Positions 9,630 to 15,262 of a stretch of DNA of 64,000 bases are shown here, in pieces (the stretch's first letter is position 1; the number at the start of each line of letters is the position of its first letter). Source of the stretch: Raillietiella orientalis. Its lineage: Eukaryota. The notes beneath the pieces are model-generated. The model did no database searches. It saw only the letters and a program-made list of their open reading frames with translations, and was not told where the DNA came from. Both the position numbers and the translations under genes were made by a program. The stretch lies in contig JAYWIR010000008.1 of the NCBI GenBank assembly GCA_036172245.1, forward strand, positions 4,712,001 to 4,776,000, given 5' to 3'.

Positions 9630-15262
<5,633 letters not shown>

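Follow-up and report, generated by a model that had tools for sequence, protein, structure and literature searches.

A natural valine at position 797 of the steroid pocket in an intact pancrustacean Na,K-ATPase alpha subunit gene

The stretch of DNA analysed here (the window, 64 kb) carries an intact, vertically inherited pancrustacean gene for the alpha subunit of the Na,K-ATPase, in which valine stands at position 797, at the start of M6, where nearly all homologues have threonine. We consider it probable, if well short of certain, that this substitution (T797V) weakens the binding of ouabain-type steroids by one to two orders of magnitude. What the gene adds is one more carrier of a resistance-type substitution that was already known, and not a new mechanism.

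Results

The valine codon and its numbering

At position 797, numbered as in pig and sheep alpha1, the gene has Val, for which the codon is GTT at 11129-11127 on the minus strand. It directly follows the motif PLPLG, which a six-frame motif scan placed at 11144-11130, and the minus-strand codons within 11144-11121 are cca cta ggg GTT gtg acc (P-L-G-V-V-T). Translated, the exon 11345-11091 gives 85 aa that match pig alpha1 (3wgu_A and 7d91_A, 1016 residues each; E = 4e-45) over residues 725-809, with no gap. The Val is assigned to position 797 because it is residue 73 of this alignment, which starts at 725; in the alignments to the pig alpha1 chains it faces the T of PLPLGTVT. The passage from Thr (ACN) to Val (GTN) requires changes at codon positions 1 and 2, and both one-step intermediates, Ala and Ile, are resistance changes in their own right. 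The initial annotation of this DNA had given the same codon, coordinates, peptide and numbering, and had counted two nucleotide changes; our alignments and codon comparison bear it out on all of these.

An intact gene of twelve coding exons

We built the exon model by tblastn with the ATPalpha of Penaeus vannamei, followed by a search for in-frame GT-AG junctions. On the minus strand, the gene spans 14426 to 9630 and is divided into 12 coding exons (Table 1). When joined, they make 3108 nt, or 1035 codons and a stop, with no internal stop codons, and all the chosen junctions are GT-AG. An in-frame TAG lies directly upstream of the first exon that was found, so the exon with the initiator Met must lie farther upstream; a pattern search returned only two implausible candidates for it.

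Table 1. Exons of the Na,K-ATPase alpha gene in the window, and carriers of V797 found elsewhere
Feature	Position or identifier	Strand	Evidence
Exon, N-terminal segment (long arthropod-type N-terminus)	14346..14426	-	tblastn with Penaeus ATPalpha, splice scan, homologue N-termini
Exon, lysine-rich N-terminal segment	13776..13913	-	tblastn and splice scan
Exon, residues 55-122, M1 and M1-M2 loop, Q111/N122 wild type	13391..13594	-	aa 1-68 = 55-122 of 3wgu_A/7d91_A
Exon, M2	13234..13347	-	tblastn and splice scan
Exon, A domain with TGES	12937..13189	-	motif scan, tblastn, splice scan
Exon, M3-M4 (PEGLL, N324, E327) and phosphorylation motif CSDKTGTLT	12299..12878	-	aa 1-192 = 246-437
Exon, N and P domains	11392..12248	-	motif scan, tblastn, splice scan
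Exon, residues 724-809, M5-M6: N776, L777, E779, F783, F786, L793, V797, D804, D808	11091..11347	-	
Exon, residues 810-841, M6-M7 loop	10921..11015	-	tblastn and splice scan
Exon, residues 841-943, M7-M8: A863; R880 and D884 wild type	9953..10258	-	aa 1-102 = 842-943
Exon, residues 944-977, M9	9801..9902	-	tblastn and splice scan
Last exon, residues 978-1016, ...ETYY and stop	9630..9750	-	last residue numbered 1016
V797 carrier proteins in the retrieved sets	P0173, P0123, P0129, P0315		
V797 metagenome contigs	L001:877-3036; L002:141-3043; L003:247-1251		

The motifs of a P-type ATPase are all in place: CSDKTGTLT at 12513-12487, TGES at 13036-13025, TGDGVNDSP at 11440-11414 and PEGL at 12636-12625. 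The Na/K-coordinating residues N324, E327, N776, E779, D804 and D808 are likewise all present, the C-terminal ETYY tail ends at residue 1016, and the model aligns without gaps to pig alpha1 over residues 725-1016. The M5-M6 exon matches Na,K-ATPase alpha1 best (4e-45), before the non-gastric H,K-ATPase (6e-38), the gastric H,K-ATPase (3e-37) and SERCA (1e-13). The same order of families, with Na,K alpha1 first, was obtained for the exons 13391..13594, 12299..12878 and 9953..10258. By these sequence comparisons, the gene is that of a Na,K-ATPase alpha subunit, a P2C P-type ATPase, and its product is a predicted pump.

The model deviates from the homologues in 16 of 606 highly conserved columns, always by conservative changes. 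The corresponding counts are 15 in Saccoglossus, 10-18 in Tachypleus and 11 in Pomacea, which places the window gene in the range of isolated lineages, and nothing in its sequence suggests gene decay. The pump is otherwise intact and keeps Q111 and N122, as the initial annotation had said. Nine of the twelve inferred introns measure 43-75 nt (43, 44, 58, 50, 44, 75, 50 and 50 nt, and similar); the others have 181, 432 and 662 nt. Three intron positions (ADIG|VAMG, NER|LIS and GMK|N) are common to the window gene and a mollusc-like metagenome contig (L002). Because of these shared positions we rejected a retrocopy and regard the gene as an ordinary inherited one. Neither a second alpha copy nor an alternative or duplicate exon was found in the 64-kb window.

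The ATPase gene is unusually compact and its setting is gene-poor, with no other recognisable coding sequence in the 64 kb. Outside the gene there are 179 further ORFs of 90 aa or more; 147 of them were scanned against Pfam, and none gave a family. The other 32 are the shorter ORFs of the first 9 kb, which is GC-rich, and two ORFs of low complexity near 15.4 kb. Searches of the window for Rfam families and tRNAs gave no matches. The region 1-8000, downstream of the gene, has 59-69% G+C (35-51% elsewhere) and many long ORFs on both strands, the longest of 586 aa at 2047-3804. Because those scanned have no Pfam match, these ORFs are probably a by-product of composition. The sequence upstream of the gene contains, at 15050-15700 and 14430-14560, a microsatellite of the (CA)n type as well as long homopolymer tracts and tracts rich in A/G, which appear as runs of His-Thr, Lys and Gly in the ORF translations.

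Placement among arthropod pumps

The best matches of the N/P-domain exon are pancrustacean ATPalpha proteins (81-84% identity). The full model is 81.65% identical over 992 aa to that of Penaeus monodon and 85% identical over 757 aa to the partial sequence of Hyalella; identity is about 81% to decapod and insect ATPalpha and 74-78% to the pumps of spiders, horseshoe crabs, snails, rotifers and acorn worms. Three protein searches returned no close relative: identity peaked at 84% with the N/P-domain exon and at 94% with the M5-M6 exon.

We inferred a quick maximum likelihood tree with 42 rows: the model itself, a single isoform for each named species, and eight sequences without a name, hand-picked from 237 retrieved proteins. 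The pancrustacean node that holds the window gene has a support of 86 SH-aLRT, and the Malacostraca (100) and the Hexapoda (98) both exclude it. Its end branch (0.23) is about as long as the root-to-tip paths of malacostracans and hexapods. The tree also groups the gene with two ostracod sequences (83 SH-aLRT), a grouping that we distrust because it joins long branches. By its position in this tree the gene is pancrustacean and lies outside Malacostraca and Hexapoda, in keeping with the arthropod affinity proposed in the initial annotation.

Distribution of V797 among homologues

Three sets of retrieved homologues contain 363 occurrences of PLPLG-x, with Thr at 352, Val at 7, Cys at 2, Ile at 1 and one false hit; both Cys are from gastric H,K-ATPases. 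In the first set, 118 of 120 proteins have the motif and all 121 occurrences carry Thr. The second set (117 further proteins) has 122 occurrences (112 Thr, 6 Val, 2 Cys, 1 Ile, 1 false), and the third (120 short proteins) has 119 Thr and 1 Val. These two sets are biased toward Val, because they were retrieved with the Val-bearing exon as query. Among 125 full-length homologues, 120 have Thr and five have Val. Thr is thus as near to universal at this position as had been claimed from the window sequence alone.

The Val carriers in these sets are Pomacea canaliculata (four isoforms of one gene), Batillaria attramentaria (one copy with Val and one with Ile), Brachionus calyciflorus and an unnamed fragment whose M5 is insect-like. 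A search with a degenerate pattern derived from PLPLGV[V/I/M] added three metagenome contigs with Val797, of which two are mollusc-like and nearest to Pomacea (86% and 81% identity) and one is divergent. One of the contigs (L001) is uninterrupted over 720 aa, and hence intronless or transcript-derived. The sequences nearest to that of Brachionus (89-90% identical) carry Thr, a pattern that fits neutral or compensated turnover. The window gene has no close relative among the V797 carriers matched. Judged from this distribution, V797 is rare and has arisen several times in animals. We found no mention of the gastropod, rotifer or contig V797 in the open literature, and by this survey the substitution is more widely scattered (gastropods, a rotifer, environmental contigs) than the insect literature suggests.

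The remainder of the steroid pocket

Residues 111 and 122 are of the sensitive type (Q111 and N122), and the classic changes of the M1-M2 region at these sites are absent. At other pocket sites, in part those of the resistance literature, the window pump has the standard residues Y308, D312, F316, G319, V322, A323, L330, A331 and T338, as well as F783, F786, L793, R880, D884 and R972; its V315 and L982 are the arthropod norm. Substitutions at sites defined by mutagenesis as determinants of sensitivity are found at 797 and at 863, where F863 is replaced by Ala. The A863 codon lies at 10195-10193 on the minus strand, in the exon 10258-9953. Among 139 occurrences of the surrounding motif in homologues, position 863 is F in 104, L in 27, T in 6, I in 1 and V in 1, and never Ala. 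According to PMC13704064, F863L in sheep alpha1 confers a 5.7-fold resistance to ouabain, and A863 may be a second contributor to insensitivity. The initial annotation is upheld for the residue and for the intactness of the pump, and had overlooked A863.

The codon of L777, at 11189-11187, adjoins that of the ion-binding N776. The residue is Ile in 124 of the 125 full-length homologues and Val in the remaining one, so that L777 is a conservative change at a nearly invariant position of M5, and it might be related to compensation for V797. A co-variation of M785 with V797 was considered and rejected: position 785 varies among the V797 carriers (M, L, F, A or V), and M785 occurs in many sequences with Thr797.

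Discussion

How V797 could act on steroid binding

The literature on site 797 is cited here from excerpts of the sources, and our statements on it are to be taken within those excerpts. The hydroxyl of Thr797 forms a hydrogen bond with the C14-OH of cardiotonic steroids (PMC11193536; PMC9169807) and apparently also bonds a hydroxyl of palytoxin (PMC12478176). In sheep alpha1, T797V gives 79-fold and T797A 67-fold resistance to ouabain, and in mouse alpha1 T797I gives 63-fold resistance (PMC13704064); another source puts the value for T797V at 70-fold (PMC9713366). The statement in the initial annotation that T797V and T797A are mutagenesis-defined resistance changes agrees with these values, and the T797A and T797S that it ascribed to hemipterans are reported in Oncopeltus paralogues (bioRxiv 10.1101/2020.08.28.272054). 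These changes come at a price: T797V is reported to lower the activity of a mammalian pump to 3.4%, and T797I is lethal on a Drosophila background (bioRxiv 10.1101/2023.03.08.531760).

In the scenario that we favour, a two-nucleotide change has put Val where M6 begins, in place of a Thr797 that is otherwise near-universal. In solved complexes the threonine hydroxyl holds the C14-OH of the steroid; because Val cannot make this hydrogen bond, ouabain-type steroids would bind more weakly than to a pump with Thr797. Weak binding would be expected despite the sensitive-type Q111 and N122, and A863 may add to the effect of V797. The cost in activity reported for T797V would have been compensated in the window pump. 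By analogy with the engineered mutants, a lowered steroid affinity of the window pump is likely. T797V is most likely a real substitution, specific to this lineage, in a pump that works.

Whether such a change was selected is a separate matter. Adaptation to a toxin is unsupported by the sequence, and tolerated or compensated drift seems at least as likely as selection, because V797 recurs sporadically in animals without known steroid exposure. An adaptive reading is weakened since most of the other V797 carriers have no known link to cardiotonic steroids. A point against the proposed loss of steroid affinity is that the effects of changes at 797 depend strongly on background, as the costs of T797V and T797I show, and are not simply transferable from one pump to another.

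Alternative readings

The window gene could instead be the resistant, tissue-restricted half of a duplicated pair, whose sensitive Thr797 copy would lie elsewhere in the genome. We regard this as possible, if on the unlikely side. Such pairs are known from milkweed bugs, katydids and Photuris; the window copy would be restricted, for example, to gut or excretory epithelia. The published natural cases of V797, I797 and A797 that we met, in the excerpts of the sources, are all paralogues of duplicated genes. The odd compactness of the gene, in a stretch where 147 other ORFs were scanned and none had a Pfam match, would also suit such a copy. However, the window holds a single copy with no alternative exon, the end branch of 0.23 shows none of the acceleration of paralogues, and the long arthropod N-terminal exon is kept. 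Moreover, resistant insect paralogues usually alter 111 or 122, whereas the window gene has Q and N.

Another reading is that V797 is a near-neutral product of tolerated drift in the window background, with other contacts holding steroid affinity near normal. The sporadic presence of V797 in unrelated animals with no known toxin link points this way, as does the single rotifer Val among 89-90% identical relatives with Thr, and the excerpted report on Photuris documents a strong dependence of site-797 effects on background (bioRxiv 10.1101/2023.03.08.531760). We nevertheless judge it unlikely. According to the excerpts of the sources, the bond that is lost with the Thr797 hydroxyl is one typical of all C14-OH steroids (PMC11193536), T797A, T797V and T797I each give 60-80-fold resistance in mammalian pumps (PMC13704064), and katydid tissue bearing V797 is resistant to ouabain (PMC9713366).

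More speculatively, the gene could encode the sole housekeeping pump of an aquatic non-malacostracan crustacean, made insensitive by V797 (with A863) alone while 111 and 122 stayed as they were, with the lineage-specific M5 changes I777L, M785, M787 and V789 offsetting the cost and aquatic toxins acting as the selective agent. Such selection is conceivable because Thr797 also appears to hydrogen-bond palytoxin (PMC12478176), and the recurrence of V797 in snails and a rotifer could then reflect palytoxin-like compounds, or the bufadienolides of amphibian eggs and larvae, and not plant cardenolides. We hold this combination to be quite improbable. Finally, an assembly or sequencing error behind the Val codon is very hard to credit, and so is a rare allele instead of the fixed state, given that two adjacent base changes would be required in an exon that is otherwise clean, with intact frame and splice sites, and that nearby M5 residues and I777L are also lineage-specific, as in genuinely diverged sequence.

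Significance

Site 797 is among the few single positions at which one substitution brings 60-80-fold steroid resistance, though the backgrounds tested pay a high price for it. Natural carriers of V797 with Q111 and N122 retained are of use in studying how this cost is compensated, and they bear on whether resistance can evolve away from M1-M2, the well-studied hotspot. The scattered occurrence of V797 cautions against inferring adaptation to toxins from sequence alone.

Comparison with known pumps

Overall, the window gene resembles the ATPalpha of other arthropods (of the type found in Penaeus, Homarus, Schistocerca and Drosophila), with which it shares about 81% identity over the whole length, the catalytic and ion-binding motifs, and the long N-terminal exon 'RxDSYRVAT...DDNRTADG'. 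It differs from them in V797, where none of the 121 motif occurrences of the first set has Val, in A863 (no Ala among 139), in L777 (Ile in 124 of 125) and in its very short introns. The V797 pumps of Pomacea, Batillaria and Brachionus share with it the conserved F783, F786, L793, R880 and N122. These carriers belong to other phyla, with 74-76% identity; they read V-I-T where the window gene reads V-V-T, and have E or T at position 111 in place of Q.

Among the published systems, the T797V mutant of sheep alpha1 has exactly this exchange of residues at this site of the steroid pocket (Feng and Lingrel 1994, via excerpts of PMC13704064, PMC9713366 and bioRxiv 10.1101/2023.03.08.531760). It is an engineered change in a mammalian pump, with a strong loss of activity, whereas the V797 of the window is a natural state in a diverged arthropod background. 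Oncopeltus fasciatus ATPalpha1A and ATPalpha1C likewise have substitutions at site 797 (T797A and T797S) in the context of target-site insensitivity. As far as the excerpted source goes, these involve other residues and always occur with N122H, usually also with Q111T and F786N, none of which is present in the window gene.

In the open literature, that is, outside subscription papers and supplements, we found no earlier V797 carrier from a crustacean-type lineage. Natural V797 as such is not new: it has been published for ATPalpha1B, a gut-specific copy in the katydid Ducetia japonica, the gut enzyme of which resists ouabain (PMC9713366), and for a paralogue of the firefly Photuris, where Thr became Val by way of Ile (bioRxiv 10.1101/2023.03.08.531760). 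These two are the nearest parallels in that they are arthropod pumps with a natural Val797. In the excerpts at hand, both are fast-evolving duplicates from animals with documented steroid exposure, the Ducetia copy being confined to the gut, and both also carry Q111E and other M1-M2 changes, whereas the window gene has Val797 with residues 111 and 122 unchanged.
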